The position numbers and the translations under genes were made by a program. The notes under the pieces are model-generated. The model was not told the DNA's origin and did not search any database. It saw only the letters and a list, made by a program, of their open reading frames with translations. From Nemertoderma westbladi (Eukaryota; Animalia; Xenacoelomorpha), in assembly GCA_032718475.1 (NCBI GenBank), contig JAUCBJ010005881.1, forward strand, positions 1 through 64,000: DNA of 64,000 bases, read 5' to 3'. Shown one piece after another: positions 14,790 to 47,899 of the stretch (position 1 is the stretch's first letter; each line of letters opens with the position of its first letter).

Positions 14790-14918
14790 TATAGAATTAT
14801 ATTCTCTAAATGCCGTGGATTTTCAAAATTTTTATTTTATTCGAATTAACTTTGCTAAAGATTACATTAAGTCCTCATTTGTATTTGCTATATCTATTTG
14901 TACGATGATTAGTCAAGT

Positions 14919-15003
14919 GGTTCAGTAGCTCAGTCGGTAGAGCGTTGGAAATTATATGTAGTGTGTATTGATTTCGAATCCTAGTAAGTGCGAATTATTT
15001 TTT
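14919..15003 (+). ncRNA. tRNA-like Pol III module embedded in LTR U3 (second copy 27501-27585)
   Basis: TAGCTCAGTCGGTAGAGC (A box/D arm), GA(G/T)TTCGAATCC (B box/T loop), T6 run; acceptor and anticodon stems do not pair, so it is not a functional tRNA. Confidence 0.55.
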
Positions 15004-15069
15004 GTGCAGAATTTCAACTCATTTAAATTGGCCGCTACAAATTAATTGCATTTACTCGAAGTAAGGTTA

Positions 15070-15240
15070 ACCAATGAGACTGTAGTTATTAGATTGTAAC
15101 CAATGTCGTACGAGTTATATATTTGCTGGACCAATAGCTATCTTTAAAAACCTGTTAGAACTCATAGAACAATCGAGAATTTTCTCGATTGATTGTGGCA
15201 CAAATTTGGTATAAAAGGTGCGATTTCGTTCATTAGTTAT
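15070..15240 (+). promoter_or_regulatory. Putative Pol II promoter of element 1 LTR
   Basis: Three CCAAT motifs, TATAAAA 15210-15216 and an Inr-like TTAGTT ~25 bp downstream. Confidence 0.6.
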
Positions 15241-17497
15241 CTCTCTCTATCTTTCTTTCTCAGTTACATTATTTCAGATTACATTGTTTATTGTATAATA
15301 GTTATCGTTTGATTTTGTAATAAAAGTTAGAAATACTTGTCACATCTGCCCTTTTCTATCTGTTTTATCATGCTTCACCACGGTGAACCCAACTGAGGGA
15401 CAGGATGGCTGGCTAGACATCGGGCCGCAGCAATGAACGGGAACATCAAAGGAATGTAGACAGGAATCAGGAATGATATCATCTTAGTTATTCGCCCATC
15501 GCCTGAAAGGTTAGACAGCGTTCGATGCCTTGCTACCTAAGTATAAGACCAAAGATCGAAGGTAGAGGTAGTGACACGCTGTACGCCTAAAATTACATCT
15601 AGGGACTGTACTGTCTTAATTCAGGAAAAAACCGCAGTAGACCTTCATATTCCTACGGGGGGGGAGAGGAGAGAGCTCAGGCAGAGATACTAGTACGCAG
15701 ATAGGACGTAGGCACACCGGTACAAGGCATACACATTGGTAGGGTGCAGCAAACTGTACGCCTAACTCTTGCTAAGTACAGGTGCGTCTGCGACTATTTG
15801 TAGTACAATGGTGTCCATTGCATCAGAACTTGTCGGCCAGGAGAGTTGCTGCGTTTCACCTGAATTAGGATTGTACTGTTCAGGCGGTAGGGCAGTTTAC
15901 GACTAGGCGCAAATAAATTGAGGCTAATTAGGGATACTAACATCTACCGTGTCCCCGCCGACATCCTGATAGGAAGTTACCAAGCCCACCTAGGTAACCA
16001 AAATTCTAGATAAGAACGCCAGGCTAGCTATTAGTAACCGTACGCCTACTGTAGTAAACTAACACATTTCTTCTTAGTATTAGGGACCTGGTAAATTAAA
16101 ATTGCCGAATTCTGGGCGTAGTATTAATCTCATGCCAGAATTTGAGTCCTGGAAATACGCAAGAGGGGAAGGAGCCTTATCATTCGTGAGTATTGGCCCT
16201 ACAAGTTACAAAATTAGAATATTCGTAAAATGCACACCGTACCCAGTAATTATATATGTGAAGGAGCAAAACTGATCTTGACTGTTCAGAATTAACACAC
16301 GCGCGTTAAAAATTATTTACACCTCAAAATATATAAAATTAACTTTTGTCCGTACTGCGCTTTGCCCGCTAGTTAGACATCTCCAAATCTCTGCACCTAG
16401 CTAGCGTCTCTTTCGCCCAACCATATAAATCACACCGCGGCAAAGTATACGAGCCCTTTAGTCCGTCAGCGAGTCAGCCTGATTTTAGGATTCGCTGCGC
16501 GGGATTTTGTTTTATCGAAGTTTGTCTGTTCGTAGACTGTTTTCTGCCTTACCGGTTATAAGGGACCAATACTGCAATATATTCGCTTACTTGGAGTTTA
16601 CTGTTTTGGTGAGAAGGTCGGATTTATGATTTGATTCACAAACTTTACAGTAAGATATTGCAGGTATTGTTACTGTCTCTTCGAATTAGTAGGAATGTGT
16701 TTTACTGAACTACAGTTCGGTAGGACTAAAGTTATTTGAAAATTTTGTATTTTGAGGTAAAAGTTTATATTTGATTAGCTAAGTGCTAATTTTTTGAAAT
16801 AAAATTTTGATTTGAACCGCGTGTAAAATTTTTGGAATTGAATACCGGTGTTTAAAAGGATTTAAATACCATATTGTACCGGTACAAAATTTTCGTAAAA
16901 GTAAAACCTAACTCTTTTGTTTTTCAGGATTCAGAACTCATTTCTAGACTGTAACGAGAGCAAGACCGTGTTTAGCAAGTTTGGGAGATAGATAACCCAA
17001 CAACTTTGGTTGGGAAAATCGCACTTCGTCCGCAACGCTGGAAACGGAAAGGTTCACGTCCGGTTTGTATCTGGGAATCTGTTTTTCTGGAGAATTATTG
17101 GAGTGGGTGATTTCGAAAAGTTGCATAAATAAGTTAGGCATTACAGTATTAGTTAAAATTTATTGTGGGTTCCACTGTCTCAAGTATTTATGCATTCCGT
17201 ACGATTTCTTTGTTCATTGCTGAATTAGTCCGTATTATTGTATTTAATTTACCTTTTGATAACGCATATCGTTATCCGATTTATTTGTTATAAAATTGGC
17301 CGCTAGGCTAATTTTATTATATACTTATTCCGTGACATTTATTTGCTGTAAAATTGGCCGTTTAGGCTAATTTTATCCATCTGCTATAAAATCGGCCGGT
17401 AGGCTAATTTTATATGACTGTAATTAGTACTGTTTAAATATAAATACGGTAAATTTGATACTTTGACACTCACTTTACTTGACTTACAACTACTGAA

Positions 17498-20400
17498 ATG
17501 AGTGACAAACAAGACTATACGAAGAATACACCTACCGACTATGACTCATGTGATGCGGATAAGTCAGCAGCGGAAGAACTACAAGGGAAGACTCGCGAGC
17601 CTACCGAACCTACACCGTGTGCGTCACCAGTACATCCAACGGGAGTACCGGATGCCGTAGTACGAGGCGACGGCAGGACCGAGGACTTTCTAACTGTTCC
17701 GCAACCTAGATATAGGGAAACGGACATGGTAAGTTCAGTAGGAAGCCAGGAGAGCGTGGTTAGAAGCGTCGGCGGATACATGGCGCATATTACCAGGAGT
17801 ATTGGAGAAGGCCAACGCATATTAGACGAGTTGACCGCTCCGATGTCTCGGTTTGAGTTCTACACCCTCCAGGTTAGAGTACAAAGTAGAGTACATAAGT
17901 CCGTAGATAACCTTATCAGTCTACAAGATCTAGCTAGACAGAGACAGGATATGGATACTCAACTTAGAATCCTCGAGAAACTAATGATCGCTAGAGAGAA
18001 ACTGATTCAGTTTAAGTCGACAATTAGGCAGATACAACAGGAACAAGCGGACCAGTTGTTAGGTGAGTCAGTTTCGGACGAATTATTGCAACCCGAGGAA
18101 GAACAGGAACTGTATAGGCTGGATGGACAATTGAAACACCTGACGGATCACTTACGCATGTGCGGCGAGGACGTCGGAGATTGGGAAACCGTGCCGGAGG
18201 CTACGAGGGAAACTTCACTCGCACAAATCGAACCGGCACCGGGAACACTAGATCAATCACTGGTGAGTATTCGCAGCGAAATTGGCGAGGTGAGTATGGC
18301 TACGTCAGAAATTGCTCGACAACAGCAGATCTACAGACAACAACAGGAGTGGGAGGAACAAACTCAATTGCTAATGGCACAAGCAGCAGCAGAAGAAGAG
18401 AAACTACGCGTTGCGAATGTTGCGAGAATCTCTCATCTGCAAGAACAAGCTGAGTTGGAAGCAGCCGAAATGGAAAGGTTAGAGTTGGACATTGCACAAC
18501 AAGCGGCAGCGGCCGAGTTAGCGCAACGAACGGCAGCGGCCGAGTTAGAGCGACAAGCGGCAGCGGCAGCGGCAGTGGCAGCGTCCGAGTTAGAGCGACA
18601 AGGGTTAGCTTCAGAAGTGAGAACCGAAATGAAAAAACGGCAAGTAAAGGCTCAGTCAGCTATACGACAAGCGGAGTTCGAGGCGCAACAACAACAAACG
18701 GAACAACGCGAGAAAGAAGTTAAACTTCGTTTCGAACTTGAGAAGAAGGCGAGAGAATTAGCCAACGCCAAGGAAGATTTGGATCTACAAGCCCGCGACC
18801 GATCGATGAGATCTCGAGACGGACATGATTTAGACCAGATGGAGGTAAGGCACCGCCAAATCCAGGAACGAATGAAGGAAGGTTCGATAGGAGCACCTGG
18901 ACGGGAACGACAATTGGTTAAAGACTTATGTCAAAGATTCCCTCAAGTAACTCCTATGTTTGCACCAGTTACGACTAAGGAACCTGTTTTGATTGCTGGT
19001 AGTAGTAATATTTCTCCTATCCATGGTGCGACAGAACACAGGTTTGTTATTCCGGACAAGTTTACACCGCCAAGAGCAACGTCATCGCCTATTCCGAAAG
19101 TCAAGGTAAGTAACCCACCGATTACAGATCGTAGTAGTTTGTTGACCGCACCTGCACTACTGACGACTAAACAGGTGAGTCCACCTTCGACACCAAAACC
19201 CGCCAGAACATACACGTACCCAATGACTTTTAGGCCTACAAGGCCTTTAGATTCAAACGCTGTCATTCGACCACCGAACCAGTTTACATCGCAATCTACG
19301 ACTTCGAGGAAGACTTGTGAGCCTACCGAACAACGGAGACCAGTGGATACGCTACCGTTCAACCAGTTTACATCGCAATCTACGACTTCGAGGAAGACTT
19401 GTGAGCCTACCGAACAACGGAGAACAGTGGACGATGTTCCGAAACGGAATGTTAGAATTCGAACGACACAACGGACGCGAGCACGTCAGCCACCGTATCC
19501 AGGTGACAGTAGTACTTCGAGTGAATCGGATTACCCGAAACGCGAGGTATTTAGAACAGGAGCGGCTGACGAATATAAACGTGAGCGTTCAGATAACTCC
19601 TTTATCGATAATCCTCCACAAAATACACCAACACAAAAGGCGTTACAACCAACGGACGCAATTAGTACGCAACAACTCGCCGAAATAATGCGCCCAGTTG
19701 TAGACAAGTTGGCTCAGATAGAGAAACGTTTAGAAGAAACTCAAACTGATAGTTCGCGAGGTAACGAGTTCGAACACTCTAGACACCCGAAGCAGCAAAG
19801 AAAACAACCCTCGAGAAACACTTCGTATCAAGGAAAAGCGCCAAGACGAGAGAACATCAACTCGATTGTCAACCAAGGACGCGAAACTTTGAACGTGGCC
19901 GAGGAGATAGCGAAATTCGCCGCCAGACAAGGTTTACCGGTACAACAACCACCGAAGTTTTCAGGTAACTCGAAACATTGGCACACCTTTGTGGACTACA
20001 TCGAAACACAAATAGCAGCGTGCGCCTTTACATCGAGGGAGAAATTCAACTACCTGCTACAAACGCTGACGGGAGAACCGAAACGTCTAGCGGAGACCTT
20101 TGTCGGTGTACCAGATGCCTTCGAACTAGCGTATGATCGCTTAACTTCAATTTACGGTGGCACGGTGAGTATGGCTAAGTCAGTGATAGATGAACTCTGT
20201 AAAGGGGGGGCTATAACAAAACCCGTTGACTTACTAAAATTAGCTGACGAGATTAAGAACGCCATTACTACACTACGCTCGATTGGACAACTTGACTACG
20301 CGAACACTCCGACAGTTCTATTGAAAATAATAGGAAGATTACACCATCGACTTCGTCGGGAGTGGCGAAAGATAGAATATCAGCGAGAAGAGAGAGGCGG

Positions 20401-23400
20401 ATTCTTGAAGTTGGAAGACGTCTACTTACTGATATCCAGAGAGGCAGTCGTTGAGACGCGTTCGAACTACACGGACCAACATATCGTGGCGGAGGGAATA
20501 ACATTACCATCCTCGAACCGACAAAAACCCCAAACAACATCCACCAAGACGGTTACTTACGCCACATCGACCGACACCCGACAATTTTCGGACAATAATA
20601 AGGTATCCGCACCAATTGGAACCAAACAGATCCGACAGCAACTGACCACAGATTTTAGCGGTTGCCAATATTGTGAACGGCTAGGTAAACGACATACTAG
20701 CCATAAACTGAGAGGTTGTCGACTATTCTGCGAATTGAACTCGGAGGAACGACGATTACAAATACGACCATTGGACTCTTGTTGGCGGTGTACGCTACAT
20801 GGACATGTCTGTAAGGACTGCCCAAATACAGACACCTGTCCTTCTTGTGGACGCAACCACGACGGCTTGCTACATACAGACAGTCATACGCCGACCAAAC
20901 GCTTCACCAGGGAACACCCGGAAGCTGCAGCAAGATGCAACACAGCATATAAGGGTCGAGAGTCGAAAACAACACCGACATTCGTGACGCACATTAGAGA
21001 TTGTTTCTCGGAACAATCAGGATCGTCAGATGAAGAGTCGGAAGACGAAGACGTTTACTTTGATACTGGAGACGAACAACCATCGATTGCGCTTCTGACG
21101 CCTGATCAACTAAAGGGGTTTAGTATAATACCTGTCAAGATTACTGGCATCAAAGGGAGCAAGAGGATCTACGCTATCCTGGATTCAGCCTCATCTCATA
21201 GCTACGTGGATGAGAAAGTAGCTGATGTTGTGACGGATCTCCGACAAGGTAAGAACGTCAGTTACACCGTAAGTAGTATGCATGGACAACGTGCAATACC
21301 AGTGACACGAGTTAAGTTGAACTTAGACACTCTTCTTCCGAAATCGCAACATAGCGAAAAGGAGAGGTCTTTGTTACCCTTTAAGGATTTAACCTTTGCG
21401 GCCACAAAGGACTTTAGTAACCTACTAGGTCCTGTCCCAGAACAATCCTTGGAGGACCATAAGTACTTCAGACACCTTGGTGTACCTGAATGTCCTGTCA
21501 ACTATAGGTCGGTAGCAATGCTGATCGGGACAGATCAATTCAACCTACATCAAGTGTGGGAAACCAGACCATCGGCAGTCGTAGCGGGAAACGCATACGC
21601 CTGTAGAACGCCGATAGGGTGGTATACTCGAGCGCCTGTGCGCACACTGGATATAAGTGACGAGGAAGACGATATACAAAGTACATGTAGTTTATTAACT
21701 ACAACTTCGACTCATTCCTTTTCACACGACGTAGACTATACTACACTACATTCGACAAAACATGACACGACGTGTGTAGCGAGTATGATAAGTCACAAGG
21801 AGCAGCTAATCCACCAGGTGAGTTTAGAACTTGGGAAGAAGACGAGTCAGCCAGAGATTCCATCGACGACAGATGATAACGCCGGAAGACTTGCGAGCCT
21901 TTCTACACCAGACATATCGCCAGACACGTTACCAGACGTATCACCAGACGCGTTACTAGACGGTCAACCAGACATTTTGCCAGACATATCACAAAATGTT
22001 CTACCAGACACTAGTAACATATTGACAAATAGTAAAGCCGCAGTTTCTCTATTGGAGCGGCCTTCTACAGACAATCAACCAGACACGTTACCAGACGTAT
22101 CGCCAGACGCGTTACTAGACGGTCAACCAGACGTTTTGCCAGACACGTCACTAGATATTTCGCCGGATGTTCCGCGAAACATTTTACCAGACATGTCACA
22201 AAATGTTCTACCAGACACTAGTAACATATTGACAAATAGTAAAGCCGCAGTTTCTCTATTGGAGCGGCCTTCTATTGACAAACAACCAGACGCGTTACTA
22301 GACGGTCAACCAGACGTTTTGCCAGACATGTCACTAGATATTTCGCCGGATGTTCCGCGAAACATTTTACCAGACATGTCACAAAATGTTCTACCAGACA
22401 CTAGTAACATATTGACAAATAGTAAAGCCGCAGTTTCTCTATTGGAGCGGCCTTGTATTGACAAACTACCAAATTTGACACACTTGAGCAACAATAAGCA
22501 CAGTGAAACCTCATGTATTACAGATGTGGGTAGTACCTACGTAAATGTAAATACAGGTGTTACTTTGCGCTCAAGAGACATACCAAACTTGCAACCTATG
22601 GTGAAACCTGGGATTAATATCGGCAGAAAAATAAGTTTACCGAAACCCACTGACCCCATAGAGTTCAAACCACCATTAACGATCGACTTACAAAGTACTG
22701 ACAACCAAGGTAAGAAAACAAGGAAGGACAAATTACTTGTAGACCCGGACGGATCAACAGTCAACAAGGGAATACTTACCGGCGGACCCGTGGGCCCTTC
22801 TAGTAAATCAAAACCTTCCAAATTCTCCATTGACTTACCTGATGACGTCACAAATACTTACGTCGACCGCATTGTAAACCTAACAGATTCTTGGACAAAC
22901 GCTTGCCGAAAATTAGCGTGGATTGTACGTTTTGTACAATACGTTAAAGGCAAACGCGACTTTACACGTCGACTTACATTGACTGAGATTGACAGGTGTG
23001 AAATTAAATTAATTCGCCATTACCAACTGCGATATTTCGCACGCGAATTCACATCTATAAATCAAGGTCAACCAATCAAGTCGTCACCAATATTGAGTTG
23101 GAGTCCGATAATTTATAATGGCTTAATTTGTCATAAATCTCGGCTTCAAAACATTGACTTTAACACAAACTTTAGATACCCAATAATAATATCGCAGCAT
23201 CACGAACTACAACGTTCAATGATACTGGACGCACATTTACATCTGAAACACGCTGGAAGACACCACTGTCTTTCCTACTTACATACAAGATTTGTATTAA
23301 TTAGACCCAGTAAAGCGTTAAGTTCAGTGACACGTACGTGTATTATTTGTAAAAAGGTACATTCTAGAATAGGTACCCAAGAAATGAGTGAACTTCCACA

Positions 23401-24370
23401 AGCACGACTTCAAGCATTCAGACCACCTTTTACAGAGACTGGAATTGACTGCTTTGGTCCCATACATACGAAACGTGGACGTATACTAGTAAAACGCTGG
23501 GGACTGATTTTCACATGTATGTCCAGTAGGGCAGTTCATATTGAACGTGTGATGGATCTTTCCACCAACGCGTTTATACTAGCATTGCGGCGATTTATCG
23601 CTAGACGCGGACTAGTGAAATGCTTGTACTCAGACCAAGGGACAAACTTTGTTGGTGCTCGAAATGAGATTGCTAGAGCCTTTAAGAAATTAGATCATGA
23701 TCAAATCTCAAACGAACTACGTCCTTACAAGATTGTTTGGAAGTTTAATCCTCCAGATAGTCCATGGAGAGGCGGAGTCTGGGAGAGATTGATTAGATCT
23801 ATAAAGACAGCCATGGCAAAGGTCATTCCAGTAAACCACATTTTGACAGACGACCAACTGACAACACTGTTTGTTGAAATCGAGGCAATACTAAATACTA
23901 GACCAATAGTATTAGTACCCGATGACAAACAATCCCAGTTTGCTTTAACACCGGCACACCTGCTTATGCAGGCACCGACTACTTTAACGCCTATTTCTTT
24001 TCCAACAGAAGGCGATAGCTACGGTAGAAAAGCGTGGAAAATCAGGCAACTACTAGCTAACAAATTCTGGGAAATATGGCAAAACCATTATTTGCCCTCT
24101 ATTTCTGCCAGAACAACATGGTACAATAACACCCGCGCATTAAAGCCGGGAGATCACGTGCTGTTAGCGGAAGTGAATCTAAAAAGACGCTTCTGGATAA
24201 CAGGTGTAATTTTAGCCACACATCCATCTATGGATGGAGTGACAAGAACTGTGACAGTACGGACAATTGACGGTCGTACAGTTGACAGACCGACTCAACG
24301 TCTCGTACTTCTTGAAGAGACTCGTAACGAGTCTGGAGACTACAAATCTCCAACTAATGTTAGTAAATAA
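17498..24370 (+). CDS. Gag-protease-integrase polyprotein lacking RT/RNase H (2290 aa)
   Basis: Pao capsid region (PKFSGNSKHW...EKFNYLLQTLTGEP), three Cys/His knuckles, AILDSAS protease, HHCC zinc finger, GIDCFGP / SDQGTNF / GGVWERL DDE integrase with C-terminal RTVTVRT...RP; no YxDD or FGDAS motifs. Confidence 0.93.
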   Translation: MSDKQDYTKNTPTDYDSCDADKSAAEELQGKTREPTEPTPCASPVHPTGVPDAVVRGDGRTEDFLTVPQPRYRETDMVSSVGSQESVVRSVGGYMAHITRSIGEGQRILDELTAPMSRFEFYTLQVRVQSRVHKSVDNLISLQDLARQRQDMDTQLRILEKLMIAREKLIQFKSTIRQIQQEQADQLLGESVSDELLQPEEEQELYRLDGQLKHLTDHLRMCGEDVGDWETVPEATRETSLAQIEPAPGTLDQSLVSIRSEIGEVSMATSEIARQQQIYRQQQEWEEQTQLLMAQAAAEEEKLRVANVARISHLQEQAELEAAEMERLELDIAQQAAAAELAQRTAAAELERQAAAAAAVAASELERQGLASEVRTEMKKRQVKAQSAIRQAEFEAQQQQTEQREKEVKLRFELEKKARELANAKEDLDLQARDRSMRSRDGHDLDQMEVRHRQIQERMKEGSIGAPGRERQLVKDLCQRFPQVTPMFAPVTTKEPVLIAGSSNISPIHGATEHRFVIPDKFTPPRATSSPIPKVKVSNPPITDRSSLLTAPALLTTKQVSPPSTPKPARTYTYPMTFRPTRPLDSNAVIRPPNQFTSQSTTSRKTCEPTEQRRPVDTLPFNQFTSQSTTSRKTCEPTEQRRTVDDVPKRNVRIRTTQRTRARQPPYPGDSSTSSESDYPKREVFRTGAADEYKRERSDNSFIDNPPQNTPTQKALQPTDAISTQQLAEIMRPVVDKLAQIEKRLEETQTDSSRGNEFEHSRHPKQQRKQPSRNTSYQGKAPRRENINSIVNQGRETLNVAEEIAKFAARQGLPVQQPPKFSGNSKHWHTFVDYIETQIAACAFTSREKFNYLLQTLTGEPKRLAETFVGVPDAFELAYDRLTSIYGGTVSMAKSVIDELCKGGAITKPVDLLKLADEIKNAITTLRSIGQLDYANTPTVLLKIIGRLHHRLRREWRKIEYQREERGGFLKLEDVYLLISREAVVETRSNYTDQHIVAEGITLPSSNRQKPQTTSTKTVTYATSTDTRQFSDNNKVSAPIGTKQIRQQLTTDFSGCQYCERLGKRHTSHKLRGCRLFCELNSEERRLQIRPLDSCWRCTLHGHVCKDCPNTDTCPSCGRNHDGLLHTDSHTPTKRFTREHPEAAARCNTAYKGRESKTTPTFVTHIRDCFSEQSGSSDEESEDEDVYFDTGDEQPSIALLTPDQLKGFSIIPVKITGIKGSKRIYAILDSASSHSYVDEKVADVVTDLRQGKNVSYTVSSMHGQRAIPVTRVKLNLDTLLPKSQHSEKERSLLPFKDLTFAATKDFSNLLGPVPEQSLEDHKYFRHLGVPECPVNYRSVAMLIGTDQFNLHQVWETRPSAVVAGNAYACRTPIGWYTRAPVRTLDISDEEDDIQSTCSLLTTTSTHSFSHDVDYTTLHSTKHDTTCVASMISHKEQLIHQVSLELGKKTSQPEIPSTTDDNAGRLASLSTPDISPDTLPDVSPDALLDGQPDILPDISQNVLPDTSNILTNSKAAVSLLERPSTDNQPDTLPDVSPDALLDGQPDVLPDTSLDISPDVPRNILPDMSQNVLPDTSNILTNSKAAVSLLERPSIDKQPDALLDGQPDVLPDMSLDISPDVPRNILPDMSQNVLPDTSNILTNSKAAVSLLERPCIDKLPNLTHLSNNKHSETSCITDVGSTYVNVNTGVTLRSRDIPNLQPMVKPGINIGRKISLPKPTDPIEFKPPLTIDLQSTDNQGKKTRKDKLLVDPDGSTVNKGILTGGPVGPSSKSKPSKFSIDLPDDVTNTYVDRIVNLTDSWTNACRKLAWIVRFVQYVKGKRDFTRRLTLTEIDRCEIKLIRHYQLRYFAREFTSINQGQPIKSSPILSWSPIIYNGLICHKSRLQNIDFNTNFRYPIIISQHHELQRSMILDAHLHLKHAGRHHCLSYLHTRFVLIRPSKALSSVTRTCIICKKVHSRIGTQEMSELPQARLQAFRPPFTETGIDCFGPIHTKRGRILVKRWGLIFTCMSSRAVHIERVMDLSTNAFILALRRFIARRGLVKCLYSDQGTNFVGARNEIARAFKKLDHDQISNELRPYKIVWKFNPPDSPWRGGVWERLIRSIKTAMAKVIPVNHILTDDQLTTLFVEIEAILNTRPIVLVPDDKQSQFALTPAHLLMQAPTTLTPISFPTEGDSYGRKAWKIRQLLANKFWEIWQNHYLPSISARTTWYNNTRALKPGDHVLLAEVNLKRRFWITGVILATHPSMDGVTRTVTVRTIDGRTVDRPTQRLVLLEETRNESGDYKSPTNVSK

Positions 24371-24902: not shown

Positions 24903-26576
24903 ATGGGTAGGAGGTTAGAGCGTTGTCGAGCCAAAAAAGGCAGACGAAAACTCTCACGTCTCCTCACAACTAACTACAAACTCTGTTGTAATCCCTCTAG
25001 TAGTAATGATTATGTAACTACACCTCTAATTATGGAGAGGATGCGTGTATTGGGCTATTACGTCACCTCCAAGAGCGGTCTTACAATATTATTTAGCAAT
25101 AGAGTCGTCAGTGAATGTTTGCTTAATAACAAACGTATCGTGGAGATTACGGATGAATCACGGCAGACGCGCGCACCTATCGGTCACCTTGGTGATGATT
25201 TCGAAGTAACGACTACGATCACTGACGATCCTTTAGAGGAACTTCTTGAGATAGAAAGGAACCTCCCGAAGAAATCTCAGACGGAGATTCGACAACTTGA
25301 AGCAACAGATGCTATAGTTTGTATACAACCTTCAGAAACCTACCAACCCATAGATCCAGATGATTATGATTATAGTGTGGGAGGAAGCGCTCGACCAATT
25401 GGAGATCTTATATAAGAACGAGTGTGGTACCCTGCCAATACGATGTGTGGTAAATGTGGCGTCGCTGGACATCATTCGACCAAGTGCAGTGGAAAGCACA
25501 TTACTACGACTCAACTAATCTGTGGATGGTGTGGAGATCAAGGGTCTCATACCTTTTATACTTGCTGGAGATTTATGGCTCAATGTACTTATTGCAATAT
25601 AAAAGGGCATCGAGCATCTGAATGCCAACTAAGAGACATACCCTATGAACACGAATCTGTAAAACTCGTGAGAAAACTATTCGATGAGTGGGAAGATTTA
25701 GCCGACGAACACGTATCGGCACAAAGAAGACGATTTCCGATGAGGGCGCATCTTGGATTTTGGGCGGTAAATCCCCAAACGATGATGTCGGAAGGATACA
25801 TCTCCGCTATGCCCCAATATGACGAACTTATCGAGGTAGTCGATATTTTGCCTCACGACAGTCGATTCCGAGTAGTGCGTGAGTATCTATTACAGATTCA
25901 CCCAGACAACAAGAACACGTGGAATTTTCAGAAAGTCGTAAATCGTATCACGTATGGTGAATTTGATCGTTTTCGAACTGAAAAGCGGAATAAAGGAGCT
26001 TGGTTAACCGTCGCATGGGCGTACCGAGCCGCGTTTTACCACAAACGTATACGAGCGAGCGTATTCGAGGAAGAGGAGATCCTAGAGGCGACAAATATAC
26101 CAGCCACTCCGGTTGCGCCGTCTGCACGTCACACTCGGGAGGACGGGCAGGGTAGGATCATAAGGGTCCAGAAAGTTAGCCAACAATTAAAGAAGTCTAT
26201 TAATATAGAAGAACGCAAGGGAGTTGAGCCGACCATTCGAATTACTCGGGATACGGTATCGCTTCCTAGAGAACCAACAGGAGGATCGGGACATACACCA
26301 GCTGATCAAAAGGGGGCGCAAGCTACTCTTGGGTCTGTGTCGTCCGCTTCCCGCGCATTCCCAGACGTTTTACCAACTGTAGTGACAACTGATCGGTCAC
26401 GAGGAATCGGTCGAGGTTTTGGGATGCCAAATAGACGAATTTGCGAGGAAATAGTCGCACCGTCTCCCAACGTCCAAACGAAACCAGTGACTCGCCCCAC
26501 GAGTCCCATATCGCGAGCAAAGTGACCTGTGCGCAGTTTTCGAGGACGCGGCAGGGCTCGATCCACTAAGCGATAA
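24903..26576 (+). pseudogene. Element 1 accessory ORF: zinc-knuckle protein of unknown function, interrupted by in-frame stops
   Basis: ORFs 24903-25415 and 25422-26525 share a frame, separated by one TAA; after TGA 26523 the frame continues PVRSFRGRGRARSTKR*; knuckles CGKC..H..C, CGWC..H..C, CTYCNIKGHRASEC. Confidence 0.75.
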
Positions 26577-27371
26577 AAGGGAGGGCAAGGGTGGACGGAA
26601 GACTCGTGAGCCTTTCTTGTGAATTTGTGATTTATTTGAATTATATGTTTTATATTTAATTAGTAAGTTTTGTATTCTGGAAGAACTCATATTTAGTAAG
26701 ATTTATATTTAGTAAGAATTTATATTTTGCAAGATTTATATTTTATATTTGTGATTATTCCGAACTTATGCAATTTATATTGTTCCGAATACTATGCAAT
26801 TTATATCTTATAAGCAGTATTTGTATTTACAGTGAAATAGAAAGTAAGAGTAGATGGAAGACTCGTGGGCCTTTCTTATAGTTTCATTTGTAAAGTGTTA
26901 TATTTGTATTTAGAAAGTTTTATAGTTAGAAAGTTTTGTACTTAGAAAGACTCATATTTGTAATTATTCCGAACTTATGCAATCTACATTTAGGCACGAA
27001 AGTATTTGTAATTATTTGAATTTATGCAATATTTGAGATGCAATAGTAGATGGAAGACTCGCGAGCCTTTCTTATGATTTCATTTATTTGTATTTGTAAT
27101 TGTTTGAATTTATGCAATATTGAGATGCAATAGATTTATATTGGTGAATTTAATTTAGATTTATATTGTACTTACTTAGTAAAGCCTTAAATATGTAAAG
27201 TTTGAATTTGTAATTATTTTGTATCGAATTATTATGTAGAAAGGAAGTATTGCTTGAAATTTAATTTGTAAATATGTAAGTACGCGACGCCCTAAGTATT
27301 CTATAATTTGATTGATTATTGGTGAAAACCGTATATTTTATGCACGATAATATCCTGTTTTCATGGAGCGG

Positions 27372-29269
27372 TATAGAATTATATTCTCTAGATGCCGTGG
27401 ATTTTCAAAATTTTTATTTTATTCGAATTAACTTTGCTAAAGATTACATTAAGTCCTCATTTGTATTTGCTATATCTATTTGTACAATGATTAGTCAAGT
27501 GGTTCAGTAGCTCAGTCGGTAGAGCGTTGGAAATTATATGTAGTGTGTATTGAGTTCGAATCCTAGTAAGTGCGAATTATTTTTTGTGCAGAATTTCAAC
27601 TCATTTAAATTGGCCGCTACAAATTAATTGCATTTACTCGAAGTAAGGTTAAGCAATGAGACTGTAGTTATTAGATTGTAACCAATGTCGTACGAGTTAT
27701 ATATTTGCTGGACCAATAGCTATCTTTAAAAACCTGTTAGAACTCATAGAACAATCGAGAATTTTCTCGATTGATTGCGGCACAAATTTGGTATAAAAGG
27801 TGCGATTTCGTTCATTAGTTATCTCTCTCTATCTTTCTTTCTCAGTTACATTATTTCAGATTACATTGTTTATTGTATAATAGTTATTGTTTGATTTTGT
27901 AATAAAAGTTAGAAATACTTGTCACATCTGCCCTTTTCTATCTGTTTTATCATGCTTCACCACGGTGAACCCAACTGAGGGACAGGATGGCTGGCTAGAC
28001 ATCGGGCCGCAGCAATGAACGGGAACATCAAAGGAATGTAGACACGAGACAACCCGCAATATCATCTTAGTTATTCGCCCATCGCCTGAAAGGTTAGACA
28101 GCGTTCGATGCCTTGCTACCTAAGTATAAGACCAAAGATCGAAGGTAGAGGTAGTGACACGCTGTACGCCTAAAATTACATCTAGGGACTGTACTTTCTT
28201 AATTCAGGAAAAAACCGCAGTAGACCTTCATATTCCTACGGGGGGGAGAGGAGAGAGCTCAGGCAGAGATACTAGTACGCAGATAGGACGTAGGCACACC
28301 GGTACAAGGCATACACATTGGTAGGGTGCAGCAAACTGTACGCCTAACTCTTGCTAAGTACAGGTGCGTCTGTGACTATTTGTAGTACAACGGTGTCCAT
28401 TGCATCAGAACTTGTAGGCCAGGAGAGTTGCTGTGTTTCACCTGAATTAGGATTGTACCGTTCAGGCGGTAGGGCAGTTTACGACTAGGCGCAAATAAAT
28501 TGAGGCTAATTAGGGATACTAACATCTACCGTGTTCCCGCCGACATCCTGATAGGAAGTTACCAAGCCCACCTAGGTAACCAAAATTCTAGATAGGACGC
28601 CAGGCTAGCTATTAGTAACCGTACGCCTACTGTAGTAAACTAACACATTTCTTCTTAGTATTAGGGACCTGGTAAATTAAAATTGCCGAATTCTGGGCGT
28701 AGTATTAATCTCATGCCTGAATTTGAGTCCTGGAAATACGCAAGAGGGGAAGGAGCCTTATCATTCGTGAGTATTGGCCCTACAAGTTACAAAATTAGAA
28801 TATTCGTAAAATGCACACCGTACCCAGTAATTATATATGTGAAGGAGCAAAACTGATCTTGACTGTTCAGAATTAACACACGCGCGTTAAAAATTATTTA
28901 CATCTCAAAATATATAAAATTAACTTTTGTCCGTACTGCACTTTGCCCGCTAGTTAGACATCTCCAAATCTCTGCACCTAGCTAGCGTCTCTTTCGCCCA
29001 ACCATATAAATCACACCGCAGCAAAGTACACGAGCCCTTTAGTCCGTCAGTGAGTCAGCCTGATTTTAGGATTCGCTGCGCGGGATTTTGTTTTATCGAA
29101 GTTTGTCTGTTCGTAGACTGTTTTCTGCCTCACCGGTTATAAGGGACCAATACTGCAATATATTCGCTTACTTGGAGTTTAATGTTTTGGTGAGAAGGTC
29201 GGATTTATGATTTGATTCACAAACTTTACAGTAAGATATTGCAGGTATTGTTACTGTCTCTTCGAATTA
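27372..29269 (+). repeat. Element 1 3' LTR (1898 bp)
   Basis: Direct repeat of 14790-16688; preceded by PPT-like GGAGCGG; followed by TSD GAGAT. Confidence 0.95.
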
Positions 29270-29287
29270 GAGATAGATAACTAAACG

Positions 29288-30467
29288 TGTAAAGGCTTTT
29301 GCGGAATTAGCCGGTTATTTTCCCGGTAAAGTACTCTGTAGTTGGTTTAACAGGCATAAAAGGCCGTGTCCTTACTGTACTGGTGTTTTAGAGGACATAA
29401 AAGTCATTTCTTCTGTATGTGTACTTTAGCGGACATAATTCGCAATTTTATGACGCAATGCGCCAAATCCTCTGTAAACAGTGTAGCTACCATGACGACG
29501 GCTAACAGCTGATGCTGTACACGTGGAGCCTTTTCTTTGTTCTCTGTTCCTTCTTTGTTCGGTCGACCAATCAGAGTGTTTTTGCCTCTGTGTTAGAGAT
29601 TGTATATAGAAACTCGTGGAGTTGAGTCAGTATGTGATTTTGTCCACAGCCTACAACACAGGCTTTGGAACCTCCGTGTTTCAGTCTTTAGCCCAACATT
29701 AGTAGGCTTAATTATAGAACGTATATCTGTTATCAATCCAAACTCAATAATCATAACTTACTCACTCACTCATAACTTAACAAACCATTCATAACTTAAC
29801 ATTTTACTGCTTTTACTGTCGGTTATTCATTATATTTGTTGATGGAATATTATATTTGGAATACTGATAAATAATCAGACACCCCAATCTTCTTGATATA
29901 CTAAAGGTTAGAGAGACCGGTTACATATAACGATTGCGACTTACATTAAGTGGTTTGAAGTGAATCTAATGCTATTTTATAGGCCCTACATGTATTGTCT
30001 GTTGTTCTCCTTATATGTGACTAAAATTAATGAAGGTCGGCAGATCAGTGTGCAGCATTGTGCAGTATTGTGTATGATTGTGATTGATAACAAAGCATCT
30101 CCTAAAGAATGCGCCATATACGTGAATCTATAGCCATTCCGTTGTGTCTAGTTTAAGTCATAACTCTGTTTATATATTTAAAGCGCCACGTCCTAAAGGA
30201 ACTGTTAATATTTCCCGAAAGTGAATAATATTTGTCAGAGATTATATATATTACGATCAGTCGAATAATACAGTAGGCCTACCCCGCAATACGGTTAGGC
30301 TTCCGAATCCAGTCTCCCGGGTATATCCAGCGGGTGAATGATCGCGCATAGACTGGCTTCGGCTAATGTAGTGTATCAAATACTTGTCATAGGCTAAAGA
30401 TGATCTATCATCTAAAAGACATCCCAATTTGGCAGGTTAAACTGCTAAAGGTCTGAAAACGCGAACA
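29288..30467 (+). repeat. Element 2 5' LTR (1180 bp, TGTAA...GAACA)
   Basis: About 11 substitutions versus 46720-47899 by eye; CCAAT ~29567, TATATA 29603, Inr-like TCAGT 29627. Confidence 0.96.
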
Positions 30468-30734
30468 ATAACAGATATACCTTCTGTATTGCAGTAGGCA
30501 ATAACGCTGAAGTACCGGACAACCGGTACCTAGTAGGCCTGACTACCTAACCACCCGGACCGGTACCTACAGCAGTACAGGTACATCAGTATTATTCGAT
30601 TGTGAAATTGTATACCGGTAGGCTGTTTAAGAGATTAGGGACTGTACACCCCTTGTTTCTTTTGGAGCTTACTTATTTCTGTCAGTTTTATTTATTTGTA
30701 GGCCAGTATTGAGCAGAAGGCGTGTAAGCCTGCT

Positions 30735-40857: not shown

Positions 40858-42410
40858 TTTTACTTAGTAGAACGTTATTTTAGCGATTATTTAGTAGATT
40901 AGTGCAATATATATTCGGGTTTATTACTTAATTACTTATATATTATATATTTAGTGCGACGGCGAGAAATAATTATTTTTCTCTTTCCTTACTGTCCGTA
41001 TTACATTACAAATACGTAATTACAGTAAGATGAAATGTCCGTACTTATTAAAGTACAATAAAGCTCCTACTATATTCAAGTATTATTGGTAAAGTAGAGT
41101 ATTAGGAATGCAAAATTCAGATCCTCGTGTCTCGGCTAAACCAAGCTCTGGGTAGACCTTGGAAACGACTTGCCTCTTCTCACTGACATTGCTTCGTGCG
41201 ATATTGCTCTCATACCGTATAGTAAATAATACATATAGTAGCGTGATGTCCTTTTAACAGTAGCGTATAACGCAAAATAAATCTGTTAAACCCTTTGACC
41301 ATCTGTAATTCTAGTCGATTAAGATATCGCGGCACCCACCGATATACTTGAAAGACAAATTCTAGAATCAGTGGTTAACGTCCCCAGACAAGTTCTGGAA
41401 TAAACTGGTGCCCATCCTAAATATTAATTATTAATATTTATAAAATCTGTCGAAATTGTAGATCCTTTAAAATTCTAGTCGATTAAGATATCGTAGCACT
41501 TACCGATACTCTTAAAAGGTCAAAATTCCTAGAATCAAGGATCCCAGTCCCCAGACACGTTCTGGAATAAAATTGTGTCTATTTAACATTAAATAATAAA
41601 ATTTACGGGAATAAATTTAAATTCATATATTTCAATGAATTTAATAAATTGTCATTTTATACAATTTATAACATTCCCAAAATTCCATTAATTAATAGAT
41701 CATGGGAGCGGAGATTCACTCTATTAAGTGTATTTGTGTGCGAGAATCTCCAATATATAGTCAATAGCCGATAAAATTCATAAAATCATATATAGAGAGG
41801 ATATTGACAATTAAAGAATTACTATTAAATAGCATCCCAGATCTGTATGCATGAGAATTACCCTAATTCTACCGCTAGCTTTCCATAATGTCACCATGGC
41901 AACAACCACGCTAGAATTAGAAGTGAGTTAAAAGAACAATAAAGGCTTGCCCCATTGAATAGCATAAGGAATAAAATAGCACATTGCTAGTATCCCAGGA
42001 TACCCAATAATAACGTGGCATTCTGGAAGGCACTGACTAAAGGACAAATGGCCCGAATATGTGCGGTTTGTGACAGTTGTGTGGAATTTGTGCGTTTATA
42101 GGTGAATGTTACTACTAAAGTGTGTTTACAGTAGCGAGTCGCAATTGTGAAAGTAGCCCTAACTCTCCAGTAAGAACCTGAAGTATATCTAAGCCTTTGG
42201 GACGGACGGTGGAGTGACTCGTGCTGGTTGTTGTGGTCGTTGTGCAGCTACGACGTTGGCGATAGGCACATCGGCGAAAGTACACCAGCGCTGAAGATCT
42301 TACACTGTCCGGGGGCAAAAGAGGGGTAGGCAGCGACGCCCGCTAGCCTAATATATAAACTCATTATAATATTGATAAACTCATAGCAGATATGACTGAG
42401 TTGATAGAAG

Positions 42411-45400
42411 ATGATCTTGGTATCAGGGAGCGATACTCTACCTTTACAAGCGTTTGTCGATAGCTTGATACGCGGCGACGCTGGTCCAACTACTACGGAG
42501 GATGATGGTCATTATATCGAACCACCAATGTCCCCGGAGCAACTTACGCGTGAATTGGATTATAGAAAGTTCACCGCTCGCTATACGCATCGTAATGGTA
42601 CGTATATGGACTTCTTAACTACTGGCCATCCTATCGATTTACACGATACGGACGACGTAGACACCGAAAGGGAAATGGTTTTATTTAAATATCATACCCA
42701 GCGGAGTCGGAACGATAAACCGAGAATAGAACACGAGAACTCTATTCGAAACAGACTCGAAAGGGAAGACGTTGAAGAGCCGGATAAACGCAGCGACTTC
42801 AACGATTATCTGGAATTCCTGAGAGAGACATACCTCAATATTGCCAGTCAACAAAATCTCGAAACTCGATATCCTCAAGGTATACATCATGACCCTATGA
42901 TAGAACTCAAACGACTCTCTTTCACTATGATGTATCTCACCGCCGATCGACCGCTACCTGTCGTCCCAGATAGCTTCGAACAGATGGAGGAATATTGTAA
43001 AACTGGAGAACGATCACCCGCGTTTCCCCTGCAGGACGTGCGTCTTTGGTATTACTGCGACGAGTGCCCTAGACCCAATCAGCAAACGGAAAGACATAAA
43101 CATCCGCGGAGACGTTGCGCTAAACACAGTTTTACACGATATACTTATGGGAGTTTCGAGCGAAACCTGTTCGACGTATCCCCTACGGTTGCTCGACTCA
43201 AACGATCCTTGAACAAACCAATGATCAGAGTTCCGGAATACTCGGTCAGACCTCCTCATTCCTCAGTTAGACCTCAGACTCTTGATCCTAATAGTATCAC
43301 GGATCCTCCCGAACTGTATTCGCTGTTCAAAGATCTAGTGTTACCCGAACAGTTGATCGGTGGCACTCCGGTAGTAGGCTCACTAGATATTCGCCAACCC
43401 TACCTAACTGGATTGGGACGCGGTCATCTAATATCGCCGTTTAACCCACACAACCGTCCCGGCTTCACCTCGATACAACCCGTTACGGAAGTCGAAGAGA
43501 GCGTCGTACGAAATGCGTTAGACGCTATTCGGCAGAAAATTGGAAAGGGAACTTACGATTGTTTGGAGAAACGTAAATTGCAACAACAAGTCCAAGCGGT
43601 GAAGGAATTAGCTTTACCCCAGTTCGAAAGAGAAATACAAAATCTCGAGGAGGACATCGAATGTGGACGAACCCACTCTTTACAAGAGTTCCTAGATGAG
43701 CGTCTACAACAACAAGCGGATGAAAATCAGCTCGAGGAGAGACATATAGAAATGGATGAGAGAGAAGAAGCAGCTTTAGCTCAACCCGAAGCTCAAATCC
43801 TTATGACGGATCTCTACTCTAAAACCATCCTTCATCCCTCGATGGTTCCCAATTTTGGAGACAAACTCTTTGCGACGGTACAACCCCAACCGGTTGATAT
43901 CAACCTAAGATCTCGAGATCTTATCGCTGACGCTCCCATGTTGCAACGTCCGCCCATCGAAGCCGCTCGTGTCGATGGTATACTCGTTGAACCTCCGGAC
44001 AATAGAGTGGATCTTGTCCGTCGCATGGTACACGATGTAAACATACGCGCTAGACCTTTACCGGACTCGTTTTATGGGATCAAAGATCACCCTTATTACG
44101 TCAACCTAACACAATATTACATGGTAAAACCGGAAGATCCTACACATAGTCTGAGGTTTCTGCCTCTCATAAATCCTCTCGATCTTGTCGAACTCGAACA
44201 ACTGCATAAACATCTGGATCAGTTAGTTAAGATAAACTCATTTCGAAAACCATACAATGTTTCCAGAATAGAGAAAGAAACAATACCTCCGTATAATCTT
44301 GATGGATTCATCAAAACTCGTTTAGTACACTGGAATCTTGACGTGTTATTCGAGGAAGAAAGAATACAACGATATGGAGATGTGGAAACATATACCACAC
44401 AATATTTAAAGTATAGAGACCTACCTAATGCTAGCGAATGCGCTACCTTGTGGCATCCTGTGGGAATGACCCTCGAAAACGCCACTAAAGAGTGGAATGA
44501 GACTCTTAACGTTATCGAGATGTATGGAGTTGTCACCTACGACAACGAAGGTAGCGTTCCGGTTGGAGAACTGGGAACTACGCGGATGATACACATATGA
44601 GGACTCGCTGGTTCTGCCCACGTATTTACTCGAGCGTGTTCCGATGTGATTGATTATTCTTTTGAAACTCTTACTGAGACACAAAGAGACTCCGACATGG
44701 ACAATTCGAGCTCGCGCAGCGTTACGTCGCCGACACCAAGCGCAAACCGGCCATGGGTATCGATGGATCGATGTTACCCCAGCCCGTGCTCGAGATGTTG
44801 TTTAACGAAAGAATCCTTAAAATCGGCTCAGCTGTTTATGGAGATCTACAAAACGACTTTCGGAATATGGAGAACATTCCATACCCTTTCGTGGATACTC
44901 AGCTGATTGCTCCCTGGGCAGAAGGCCGAGGTTTCTTCTGCACTATGTATGCCAATACACCCAGCGGCATTACTAAAGTACAACGAACCTCCATCGGACA
45001 TCTTGCCTTTCAAGAATACGGATGGAATTTCAAGGTTGGAAATCCTAAAAATTACCAACAAGTATATGGAGATCATTATTCTCGTTTATACTTTGATGGA
45101 CCATTGACCGCACCTGGCGCCGTGTATAGCTTTATGAGTGTTCCACTTCGTCCCTCCTTAGCTATATACACGATCTTTGAAAACGCAGCACTTGCCGGTT
45201 GGCTAGCCGATGTGTGCAGTCGTACCATACGCGCCCATCCCTTAATACTTGGAACCAAACTCGCCAAGTTAGATGAACACAATAAATTCATCCGCTTCGA
45301 ATGTTTCAGGCGCTTTCTGACTCCGTTCCATAACGTTGATAGTCAGTTCAAGGACCGCGCTCTGACCAAACTCAGCCTAAGAGACTCAGCTGCGGAGAAG

Positions 45401-46641
45401 CTAAACAGCGCGGGATTTGCCCTCTTTCAGGACGTTTGTATACAGAACTTACATTCATCTGTTATACAAAGACCCCGAATACCCACGGGTTATTCTGTCG
45501 TGGAAGTTCAGACAGTGGGTCCGCTTGCGGAGACAGCCGCACCTACCTCAGCTATGCAATTGGAAGACGAACCAATCTGCTTAGAGTCTGAAGCGATCCA
45601 GCCTACAGCGCCCCGGAGCAGCGATAACGATTACGTCTTGGAGTGGTATCAAGGTCCACAATGTCTCACCGCATACGATTATCGACACGCCAACTATGTT
45701 TCTCGAAAACGTTGCCGATTATGCGCATCGAGAGACCATTTCACCCCTATGGACTCAGACGTACCCTGCTCCTATTTCCACGAACAACCGATGATGGAGA
45801 TCTATTGTGCGTATTGCAGACTTAATAACTCGCATATTTTTGCAGTCTGCCCCCAATTTATGACCCAATGCCACCACTGTCAACTTAAAGGACATGCCAG
45901 TTATAATTGCCCCTTTAACCGCGATTTAGAAAGCGTAGATGAGATGATTACCCTGCGCTACATCCGAGCTTGGGAAGCGAACGCGGATTTACATTGTGAG
46001 TCACGCCATCGCTACTACCCTGGACGCTCTTACGAGGGAGTTTACGCATTCCATCCTTATTTATTCGCGTCTGTGGAACAAAAAACACGCACACCGAGTT
46101 ACGAACTAATGAAGCGTGTTGGTGAGTGTATTTCAACCAAATTTGTTCGAAAATATCTTAGGAACGTCAATCCTAACGATATTACTTCATATCATTTGAT
46201 CAATTTCATCCGTCAAGACCCTGAGTATGGCGATTTATTTATCAACTCGCACCCTGAGTTACAGGAAGTATCTCGACGGCCCTACGAATATCGAGCCCGA
46301 GAACGCGAGCTGGAAAGAACCATTAAACCAAGAAGTTTCTCACCACTCACGGTCCGCCTACCGCCATTGTCCAGACGACCCGTCAAGGACCCGTAGGAGC
46401 TGCTGTCCTAAGACACGCCCTAAAGGCTGTTAGACCTCGCTCCACTGAAATTGATATCGATCAACCAGGTACCTCGACCGGCGGATACAGCGATCGTAAT
46501 CCTAAACCTTCTGATGCAATTGTATTGCACCCTTCACCCAGGAGCTACAGCCCTCCTAGTAAAGTGGCTCGCCCCAAAGAGAAAAGGACTCTTGCTAACC
46601 TCAAAAAACTGCGTAAACGCCGTCCGCGTAAGAAAGACTAA
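42411..46641 (+). pseudogene. Element 2 accessory ORF: unknown N-terminal region, DEDDy 3'-5' exonuclease-like domain, triple zinc knuckle and basic tail (broken into pieces)
   Basis: 729-aa ORF ends ...YGVVTYDNEG (ExoI-like) at TGA 44598; the 547-aa ORF has LPQPVLEMLFNERILKIG...GD (ExoII-like), FVDTQ, SIGHLA and PLRPSLAIYTIFENA (ExoIII-like), then knuckles; a third frame (46327-46641) ends KKLRKRRPRKKD*. Confidence 0.7.
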
Positions 46642-46719
46642 CTGTTTAGAGTATTTTTATATTTTAGAAACTGTGATTGGTTATATTTTATAGACTTAAA
46701 TCCCATTTTCTGGGTGCGG

Positions 46720-47899
46720 TGTAAAGGCTTTTGCGGAATTAGCCGGTTATTTTCCTGGTAAAGTACTCTGTAGTTGGTTTAACAGGCATAAAAGGCCGTG
46801 TCCTTACTGTACTGGTGTTTTAGAGGACATAAAAGTCATTTCTTCTTTATGTGTACTTTAGCGGACATAATTCGCAATTTTATGACGCAATGCGCCAAAT
46901 TCTCTGTAAACAGTGTAGCTACCATGACGACGGCTAACAGCTGATGCTGTACACGTGGAGCCTTTTCTTTGTTCTCTGTTCCTTCTTTGTTCGGTCAACC
47001 AATCAGAGCGTTTTTGCCTCTGTGTTAGAGATTGTATATAGAAACTCGTGGAGTTGAGTCAGTATGTGATTTTGTCCACAGCCTACAACACCGGCTTTGG
47101 AACCTCCGTGTTTCAGTCTTTAGCCCAACATTAGTAGGCTTAATTATAGAACGTATATCTGTTATCAATCCAAACTCAATAATCATAACTTACTCACTCA
47201 CTCATAACTTAACAAACCATTCATAACTTAACATTTTACTGCTTTTACTGTCGGTTATTCATTATATTTGTTGATGGAATATTATATTTGGAATACTGAT
47301 AAATAATCAGACACCCCAATCTTCTTGATATACTAAAGGTTAGTGAGACCGGTTACATATAACGATTGCGACTTACATTAAGTGGTTTGAAGTGAATCTA
47401 ATGCTATTTTATAGGCCCTACATGTATTGTCTGTTGTTCTCCTTATATGTGACTAAAATTAATGAAGGTCGGCAGATCAGTGTGTAGCATTGTGCAGTAT
47501 TGTGTATGATTGTGATTGATAACAAAGCATCTCCTAAAGAATGCGCCATATACGTGAATCTATAGCCATCCCGTTGTGTCTAGTTTAAGTCATAACTCTG
47601 TTTATATATTTAAAGCGCCACGTCCTAAAGGAACTGTTAATATTTCCCGAAAGTGAATAATATTTGTCAGAGATTATATATATTACGATCAGTCGAATAA
47701 TACAGTAGGCCTACCCCGCAATACGGTTAGGCTTCCGAATCCAGTCTCCCGGGTATATCCAGCGGGTGAATGATCGCGCATAGACTGGCTTCGGCTAATG
47801 TAGTGTATCAAATACTTGTCATAGGCTAAAGACGATCTATCATCTAAAAGACATCCCAATTTGGCAGGTTAAACTGCTAAAGGTCTGAAAGCGCGAACA
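46720..47899 (+). repeat. Element 2 3' LTR (1180 bp)
   Basis: Direct repeat of 29288-30467; preceded by GGGTGCGG; followed by TSD AAACG. Confidence 0.96.

Follow-up and report, generated by a model that had tools for sequence, protein, structure and literature searches.

Two large retroelements in one satellite array

The first 64,000 nt of contig JAUCBJ010005881.1 of Nemertoderma westbladi (the whole stretch analysed here, referred to below as the window) contain two large BEL/Pao retroelements with long terminal repeats (LTRs). Self-comparison for LTR pairs, together with target duplications, delimits them as element A (14790-29269, 14,480 bp) and element B (29288-47899, 18,612 bp). Both are inserted in the same orientation into a single array of a 34-bp satellite:

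13496..14789, no strand: 34-bp satellite, left part of the array receiving both insertions
14790..16688, + strand: 5' LTR of A, TA...TA, 1899 bp
27372..29269, + strand: 3' LTR of A, 1898 bp
29270..29287, + strand: satellite between the elements, 18 bp, containing both target duplications
29288..30467, + strand: 5' LTR of B, TG...CA, 1180 bp
46720..47899, + strand: 3' LTR of B, 1180 bp
47900..48311, no strand: 34-bp satellite, right part

Each element has a 5-bp target duplication (GAGAT for A, AAACG for B), and the 18 bp between the elements place the two target sites 13 bp apart. The LTRs of A differ by 26 substitutions over 1893 columns (Kimura two-parameter distance, K2P, 0.014) and those of B by 11 over 1181 (K2P 0.009); the order of insertion is not readable from these divergences. 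Nucleotide comparison of the LTRs of A with those of B gave no match, and the sole blastn match between the elements is an Ala/Glu-codon repeat. An earlier note on this DNA, made from the sequence alone, had described two large elements with unrelated-looking LTRs, inserted side by side in one satellite at similar LTR divergence, and this description stands. Of the TG...CA ends that it gave as usual for BEL/Pao elements, B has them, and A (TA...TA) departs from them. An alternative end for A at TAG, with a 4-bp duplication, was discarded because the duplications of B and of two related loci introduced below (L014 and L059) are of 5 bp, and also because the self-pairing of A begins at that G. 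In the accessible text of a Drosophila study, dimers of transposable elements are common and mainly ascribed to insertion-site preference, its section on LTR elements placing the emphasis on recombination instead (10.1101/158386); the adjacency of A and B is therefore no proof of partnership.

Gag-Pol proteins and the absence of reverse transcriptase from A

17498..24370, + strand: intact Gag-protease-integrase open reading frame (ORF) of A, 2290 aa
32651..40857, + strand: Gag-protease-reverse transcriptase-RNase H-integrase region of B, broken by stops at 32891, 33077, 35213 and 39658 and by a frame change near 35860-35920

The predicted protein of A consists of a head of ~810 aa, Gag (DUF1759), a triple Cys-His box, a protease (motifs ILDSAS and LIG), a linker of ~485 aa and an integrase, the open frame of 2290 codons keeping catalytic-type motifs, with DCFGP, SDQGTNF and GVWERL all present. 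The repeat-rich linker, which includes 183-bp in-frame tandem repeats at 21907-22471, takes the position of reverse transcriptase (RT) and RNase H: neither YxDD nor FGDAS occurs in A, and tblastn with the RT-RNase H of B gave a best E value of 1.1. The domains of B are complete (Peptidase_A17, E 3e-35; DUF5641; YMDD; VFGDAS), and the best matches of its RT are BEL/Pao proteins, at no more than 43% identity. Three Cys-His boxes are found in each Gag. One element with RT and one without thus coexist at this locus, as the earlier note had it.

The predicted Gag heads, ~810 aa in A and ~830 aa in B, are long relative to those of homologues, which have a median of 311 and a maximum of 531 aa (74 of 120 proteins with a Gag match, in a set limited to homologues of at most 2235 aa) or, in a second set, a median of 354 and a maximum of 782 aa (102 of 120 proteins). 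Of the very long, Ala/Glu-rich Gag N-terminus described before, the length is upheld; the richness is limited to one block of ~100 residues in each head (43% and 51%), and the two heads have no detectable homology with each other (E 0.09).

Sequencing run X1, which consists of contigs only and is possibly from DNA, provided further evidence on the families. In the B stretch every one of the 30 bins is covered, by 938 contigs of 85-100% likeness; in the A stretch, which includes the 5' LTR of B, 157 contigs cover 29 of 30 bins. This indicates that both elements belong to families or have relatives in the X1 sample. Two X1 contigs join across the RT and most of the RNase H of B, the same part that is absent from A (joints 37026-38834 and 37029-38806, with short sides of 41 and 34 nt and one contig each). 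They hint, weakly, at an origin of RT-less derivatives from B as well. Among the X1 joints listed there is no A-like copy with RT, the depth on A being low.

Genes downstream of integrase

24903..26525, + strand: accessory frame of A, with one in-frame stop at 25413 and a triple zinc knuckle plus helical domain from 25425
42408..44600, + strand: open frame found in B only, 730 aa, with no family and no usable look-alike
44678..46396, + strand: accessory frame of B, 572 aa, with a zinc-knuckle domain (45692-46240) homologous to that of A

The sequence after integrase amounts to 3002 nt in A and 5863 nt in B, compared with 82-547 nt in 14 related loci. The homology between the two accessory proteins (BLASTP E 1e-18, 26% identity over 178 aa) covers ~180 aa and comprises three CCHC-type knuckles, a conserved Cys/His pattern and a predicted helical part. 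No membrane-like segment was detected in the accessory proteins or in the 730-aa frame (best 19-residue hydrophobic mean 0.7-1.2), nor was there a Pfam env match. The shared non-env gene after integrase that had been reported is therefore real, its homology being confined to the zinc-knuckle domain. A search of 1.84 billion representatives returned three matches, all spurious or generic zinc knuckles; a search of 5.8 billion proteins (lengths 298-951) returned no homologue; matches in the Atlas were below 0.9 and to generic knuckles, and those to PDB sequences were weak. The domain occurs in 0 of 78 related loci, and scans of viral contigs yielded no relative, whether run with the RT, with the Pol alignment or with the accessory alignment. 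The 730-aa frame of B likewise had no usable database match. An internal tandem duplication of ~165 bp lies 3' of the B integrase (41307-41605).

Differences between B and X1 fall on third codon positions in 7 of 7 cases in the accessory frame; for pol the count is 17 of 23 and for the 730-aa frame 1 of 2. These counts are drawn from the 40 listed of ~1780 differences, several of them from the same contigs. The accessory gene is thus apparently under selection, as judged from these codon positions.

Primer sites complementary to the LTR

15646..15656, + strand: A, LTR segment 857-867, candidate self-primer, complementary to the A primer site
16689..16699, + strand: A, primer-binding position, without TGG, pairing with 15646-15656
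29721..29733, + strand: B, LTR segment 434-446, candidate self-primer, complementary to the B primer site
30468..30480, + strand: B, primer-binding position, without TGG, with 13-nt perfect pairing

In both elements the first 8 nt 3' of the 5' LTR lack the TGG of a tRNA primer-binding site, and complementarity to the LTR begins at the very first base after it (offset 0). It extends over 11 nt in A, with eight Watson-Crick pairs preceding a single G-U, and over a perfect 13 nt in B, and the pairing letters differ between the two. At random internal positions a pairing of 11 nt was reached in 2 of 600 cases for A and one of 13 nt in 0 of 600 for B; a second null set for direct pairing gave 0 of 200 for each. 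Beyond an internal loop the A duplex gains 7 bp, for a total of 18 bp, and in the extended B duplex 20 of 21 positions pair. None of the X1 variants listed falls on the primer sites. A published screen for self-primers in plants, in the part of its text available, called for at least 10 bp starting 0-5 bp after the LTR (PMC6317226); B passes such a screen, and A does so if G-U is allowed. Primers formed at a splice junction were rejected for A (9 nt, null 15/200) and B (6 nt, null 58/200). The LTR-complementary sequence that had been noticed in place of a tRNA site is thus borne out in both elements, and priming independent of tRNA is the best reading of them, as far as the DNA can tell.

Several other features of the LTRs and leader were noted. 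In the B LTR, a donor-like GTATGT and an AG located 3 nt before the primer segment enclose ~88 nt (29630-29717). Relatives have predicted LTR introns of similar size (71-98 nt), and the span in B may be an intron that has slid or died. With a TATA box, AATAAA and CA (15210-15345), the opening ~555 bp of the A LTR resemble a complete short LTR within the long one. At 14916-14985 and 27498-27567 the A LTRs contain a tRNA-like stretch with what we take to resemble the A and B boxes of RNA polymerase III promoters at tRNA spacing; neither ARAGORN nor Rfam called a tRNA gene there. The B leader carries a 289-bp internal tandem duplication (30744-31327).

Self-pairing in relatives of ordinary size

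At least 78 related loci were fetched from metagenome contigs with the Pol alignment. A distant direct repeat was present in 33 of 78; the 13 of these with a fixed or seemingly fixed 5' LTR end were tested, and on inspection by eye the remaining 20 were set aside as assembly overlaps, coding duplications or LTRs truncated at contig ends. TGG occurred within the first 8 nt in one tested locus (L009) and was missing from the remaining 12. Self-pairing of 9-15 nt at offsets 0-3 was detected in 9 of the 13 loci, representing eight families scattered over the integrase tree, each with its own letters. Two pair directly (L014, 10 nt; L029, 11 nt). The primers of the other six families would arise at a splice junction (L003, 12 nt; L007, 12; L048, 15; L059, 11; L062 and L066, one family, 10; L043, 9), LTR splicing being predicted here from GT...AG signals and L062 being accepted only under a relaxed acceptor filter. 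Nulls for the relatives were 0-3 of 200 in the matching test, and 16 of 200 for L043 if either mode is counted.

These nine loci (L003, L007, L014, L029, L043, L048, L059, L062 and L066) resemble A and B in the missing TGG site, the self-pairing at the LTR edge and a short GC-rich tract. They differ in being ~6-8 kb long where both ends are fixed, with LTRs of 0.18-0.42 kb, the short sequence after integrase given above and no accessory gene; in addition, six of the eight families require removal of the predicted LTR intron to form the primer, unlike A and B. Since the priming signature and the tract also occur in such ordinary-sized relatives, they were likely inherited from a wider BEL/Pao group. 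RT-less proteins are not confined to A either: among 120 integrase homologues listed, P0169, P0189 and P0246 combine Gag, protease and integrase in one frame and lack RT, with a short RNase H remnant kept in P0246. Unlike A (2290 aa, linker ~485 aa), they are 1470-1560 aa long with linkers of 147-227 aa, and they are placed away from A and B in the integrase tree.

The GC-rich tract at the 3' LTR

27365..27371, + strand: A, GGAGCGG at the polypurine-tract position, abutting the 3' LTR
46713..46719, + strand: B, GGTGCGG at the polypurine-tract position, abutting the 3' LTR

The GG(A/T)GCGG tract next to the 3' LTR is present in both elements, as first observed. As a private motif it was rejected, relatives having GGGGCCGG, GGAGCC or GGGCGG in its place. 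A GC-rich tract lies within 3 nt of the 3' LTR start in 14 of 14 related loci with a fixed start; 4 of these 14 starts were set from the tract itself, and 10 are independent. In L003, L007, L059 and L048 a spacer of 2-3 nt between LTR and primer site is mirrored by one between the tract and TG, A, B and L062 have a spacer on neither side, and L014 departs from the pattern. Trimming of ends by integrase may vary within the self-pairing group.

A second GGAGCGG occurs at 24484-24490 in A, 114 nt past the integrase stop, and at 41705-41711 in B, ~850 nt past it, with CAT plus one base ahead much as in the terminal tract of A. It may act as a central plus-strand primer or, as a relic, mark where the 3' LTR formerly began. 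The window contains 14 matches to GGWGCGG, all within A or B, with 4 expected (a count noted post hoc).

Lineage and placement in BEL/Pao

The integrases of A and B are sisters with support of 1.0 in a FastTree of 156 rows and of 100/100 in trees of 51 and 44 rows, hand-picked subsets spanning the larger tree. Identity between the two is 44-45%, and with others it does not exceed 42%. Their deep position differs between the two smaller trees and both branches are long, so that grouping by long-branch attraction is possible. The pair is separate from the few named rows, the Antheraea polyprotein and a Schistosoma mekongi protein, again with a shifting deep position.

By their predicted proteins A and B are BEL/Pao elements, with a triple Cys-His box in Gag (motif as defined in the available part of PMC554778), BEL-type Pol, LTRs and target duplications. 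With Belpaoviridae (Semotivirus) they share the DUF1759 Gag, the triple Cys-His box, the LDSxS and LIG motifs of protease, the DUF5641 integrase, LTRs and the 5-bp target duplication; the order Gag-protease-RT-RNase H-integrase is complete in B only, A having protease and integrase. The profile of this family by the International Committee on Taxonomy of Viruses (ICTV) gives an 18-nt primer site for host tRNA-Arg or tRNA-Gly, a genome of 4.2-10 kb, LTRs of 0.2-1.2 kb, and a replication that is primed by host tRNA and poorly understood (PMC8742986). A and B differ from it in the absence of a tRNA primer site, in lengths of 14.5 and 18.6 kb, and in extra genes with soluble, not env-like, products; A differs further in its LTRs of 1.9 kb (1.18 kb in B), its TA...TA ends and its lack of RT. 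The unusual size claimed before thus holds against the ICTV range and falls below published maxima: in the available text of a 2011 survey the median is 7,382 bp, the longest element 22,762 bp and the longest LTR 2,427 bp (PMC3118150), maxima that may include nested insertions. BEL/Pao elements with a third gene include Tas and Cer7, in which, according to the accessible part of PMC554778, it encodes an envelope, unlike the A and B products with their three zinc knuckles and no hydrophobic segment. The available text of the same paper uses none of the terms primer binding, PBS and tRNA, and that of PMC6238403 does not mention the PBS. Among titles and abstract openings, which included few subscription papers and Repbase reports, none was found on self-priming or tRNA-independent BEL/Pao elements, on RT-less BEL elements or on extra zinc-knuckle ORFs.

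Other features of the window

A frame of 500 aa at 60417-61919, with RVT_1 (E 4.5e-29) and DUF6451, is a piece of a non-LTR retrotransposon. Long inverted arms at 50454-51338 and 57803-58451 (287 nt at 98%, plus more), ~7.4 kb apart, adjoin two arrays of one 22-bp satellite.

A proposed self-priming pair with divided labour

Taken together, we consider it reasonably probable that A and B are a young BEL/Pao pair of one enlarged lineage, likely primed by their own RNA, in which A borrows RT and RNase H from an RT-coding family and the zinc-knuckle gene likely acts as an RNA-binding helper. The closest parallels are Tf1/Tf2, Tj1, Tf1/sushi and Tcn1 among Ty3/gypsy elements and TAR/Houba/Osr-1 among Ty1/copia elements, whose primer site, in the accounts available, is complementary to their own LTR RNA over ~11 nt. 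In Tf1 the first 11 bases are described as pairing and RNase H as cutting between bases 11 and 12 (available parts of PMC7175516 and PMC4600332). No Ty3/gypsy-type Pol was encountered, the domains and homologues of A and B being BEL/Pao; the pair is outside the Tf1/sushi group and, by analogy, likely Tf1-like in priming. Folding of the genomic RNA would put the LTR segment onto the primer site, and RNase H would cut just 3' of the paired segment, as in Tf1, the cut end then priming minus-strand DNA. RT would copy 730-1030 nt of LTR before jumping to the 3' end, and plus-strand priming would fall to the GC-rich tract; as A and B have a spacer on neither side, their ends would need no trimming. 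A would make its own particles, its integrase would handle its own TA...TA ends, and it would receive RT and RNase H in trans, which would be required even to free its primer. The intact RT-less frame of 2290 codons points to a division of labour between families. B need not be the helper of A, given integrases only 44-45% identical and unrelated LTRs. It is conceivable, although we would sooner expect otherwise, that the orphan accessory protein serves as a chaperone or exporter of the long RNA, for instance by aiding primer annealing across 730-1030 nt of LTR.

Several observations weigh against this proposal. The main difficulty of self-priming is that A has a TATA box (LTR 421) and AATAAA (LTR 530) upstream of its primer segment (LTR 857), such that, if both are used, the 3' end of the RNA would be too short for strand transfer, and that the B LTR has no clear poly(A) signal, neither AATAAA nor ATTAAA being present; a second AATAAA in A, at LTR 1123, would suit self-priming. 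A has only the eight Watson-Crick pairs ahead of its G-U, GC-matched internal 25-mers paired equally well within the LTR by free energy in 3 of 120 and 2 of 120 cases, and 4 of the 13 tested relatives (L009, L016, L065 and L074) showed no pairing, none of these four having a clear TG...CA pair. Self-priming is a prediction from the DNA; no RT-coding partner of A was identified; and the role of the accessory protein is drawn from its motif, the predicted folds having pLDDT (predicted local distance difference test) values of 33 and 40.

The pairing might instead be a leader fold serving packaging, dimerisation or a translation switch, the true primer being a host RNA, for instance a fragment from within a tRNA. 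Some Ty1/copia lineages are primed by half-tRNAs that lack TGG (accessible text of PMC6317226), local hairpins in A and B compete for the same bases, and the primer segment is deep in the LTR, where the RNA does not clearly begin. A single host-RNA primer would lead one to expect shared letters, yet these are wholly different in A, B and the eight other families while pairing at the LTR edge is kept, and six of the families have a partner only where two predicted exons are joined; we regard this explanation as improbable. Chance complementarity in long AT-rich LTRs, with A and B as ordinary enlarged BEL/Pao copies, might appeal to the many partners that LTRs of 1.2-1.9 kb supply, to the G-U needed in A and to published size maxima that include these lengths (PMC3118150, in its available part). 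It is very improbable in the face of the position-anchored nulls (2/600 and 0/600) and with 9 of 13 related loci sharing the signature.

The earlier note went further and saw a distinct clade with a single coupled system, to which priming, tract, long Gag and accessory gene all belong and which comprises B-type helpers and A-type dependants. The sister relationship (100/100), an accessory domain found in the pair alone (0 of 78 related loci, no real database homologue) and the X1 suggestion of RT-less derivatives of B speak for it. Priming and tract are found, however, without the accessory gene, the long Gag or the large size, RT loss recurs in other branches, and A and B differ in integrase and LTRs to the extent stated, which leaves the coupled system quite unlikely. 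What remains of the clade is one long-branched integrase lineage; that the priming and the tract, listed before among its shared traits, mark it is not supported. Self-priming in an enlarged pair stays our preferred reading, and the novelty of the pair itself is its enlargement (long LTRs, a long Gag head and 3-6 kb after integrase), the orphan zinc-knuckle gene and the intact RT-less member.

It is tempting to speculate, though we hold this wider scenario to be rather unlikely as a whole, that a large marine branch of Belpaoviridae swapped tRNA for self-priming, often with a spliced primer. A and B would then be a "complex" offshoot of 14-19 kb with an orphan zinc-knuckle regulator like the accessory genes of retroviruses, divided between helpers that encode RT and dependants that lack it and retain their own capsid and integrase to insert non-standard TA...TA ends. 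Should self-priming in BEL/Pao elements as such be borne out, tRNA-based annotation would miss such elements or set their bounds wrongly, and the ICTV definition of Belpaoviridae replication by host tRNA would need revision. Self-priming would then have arisen independently for a third time among LTR elements, its primer being made directly or by splicing, and would offer a test of how tRNA priming is lost.

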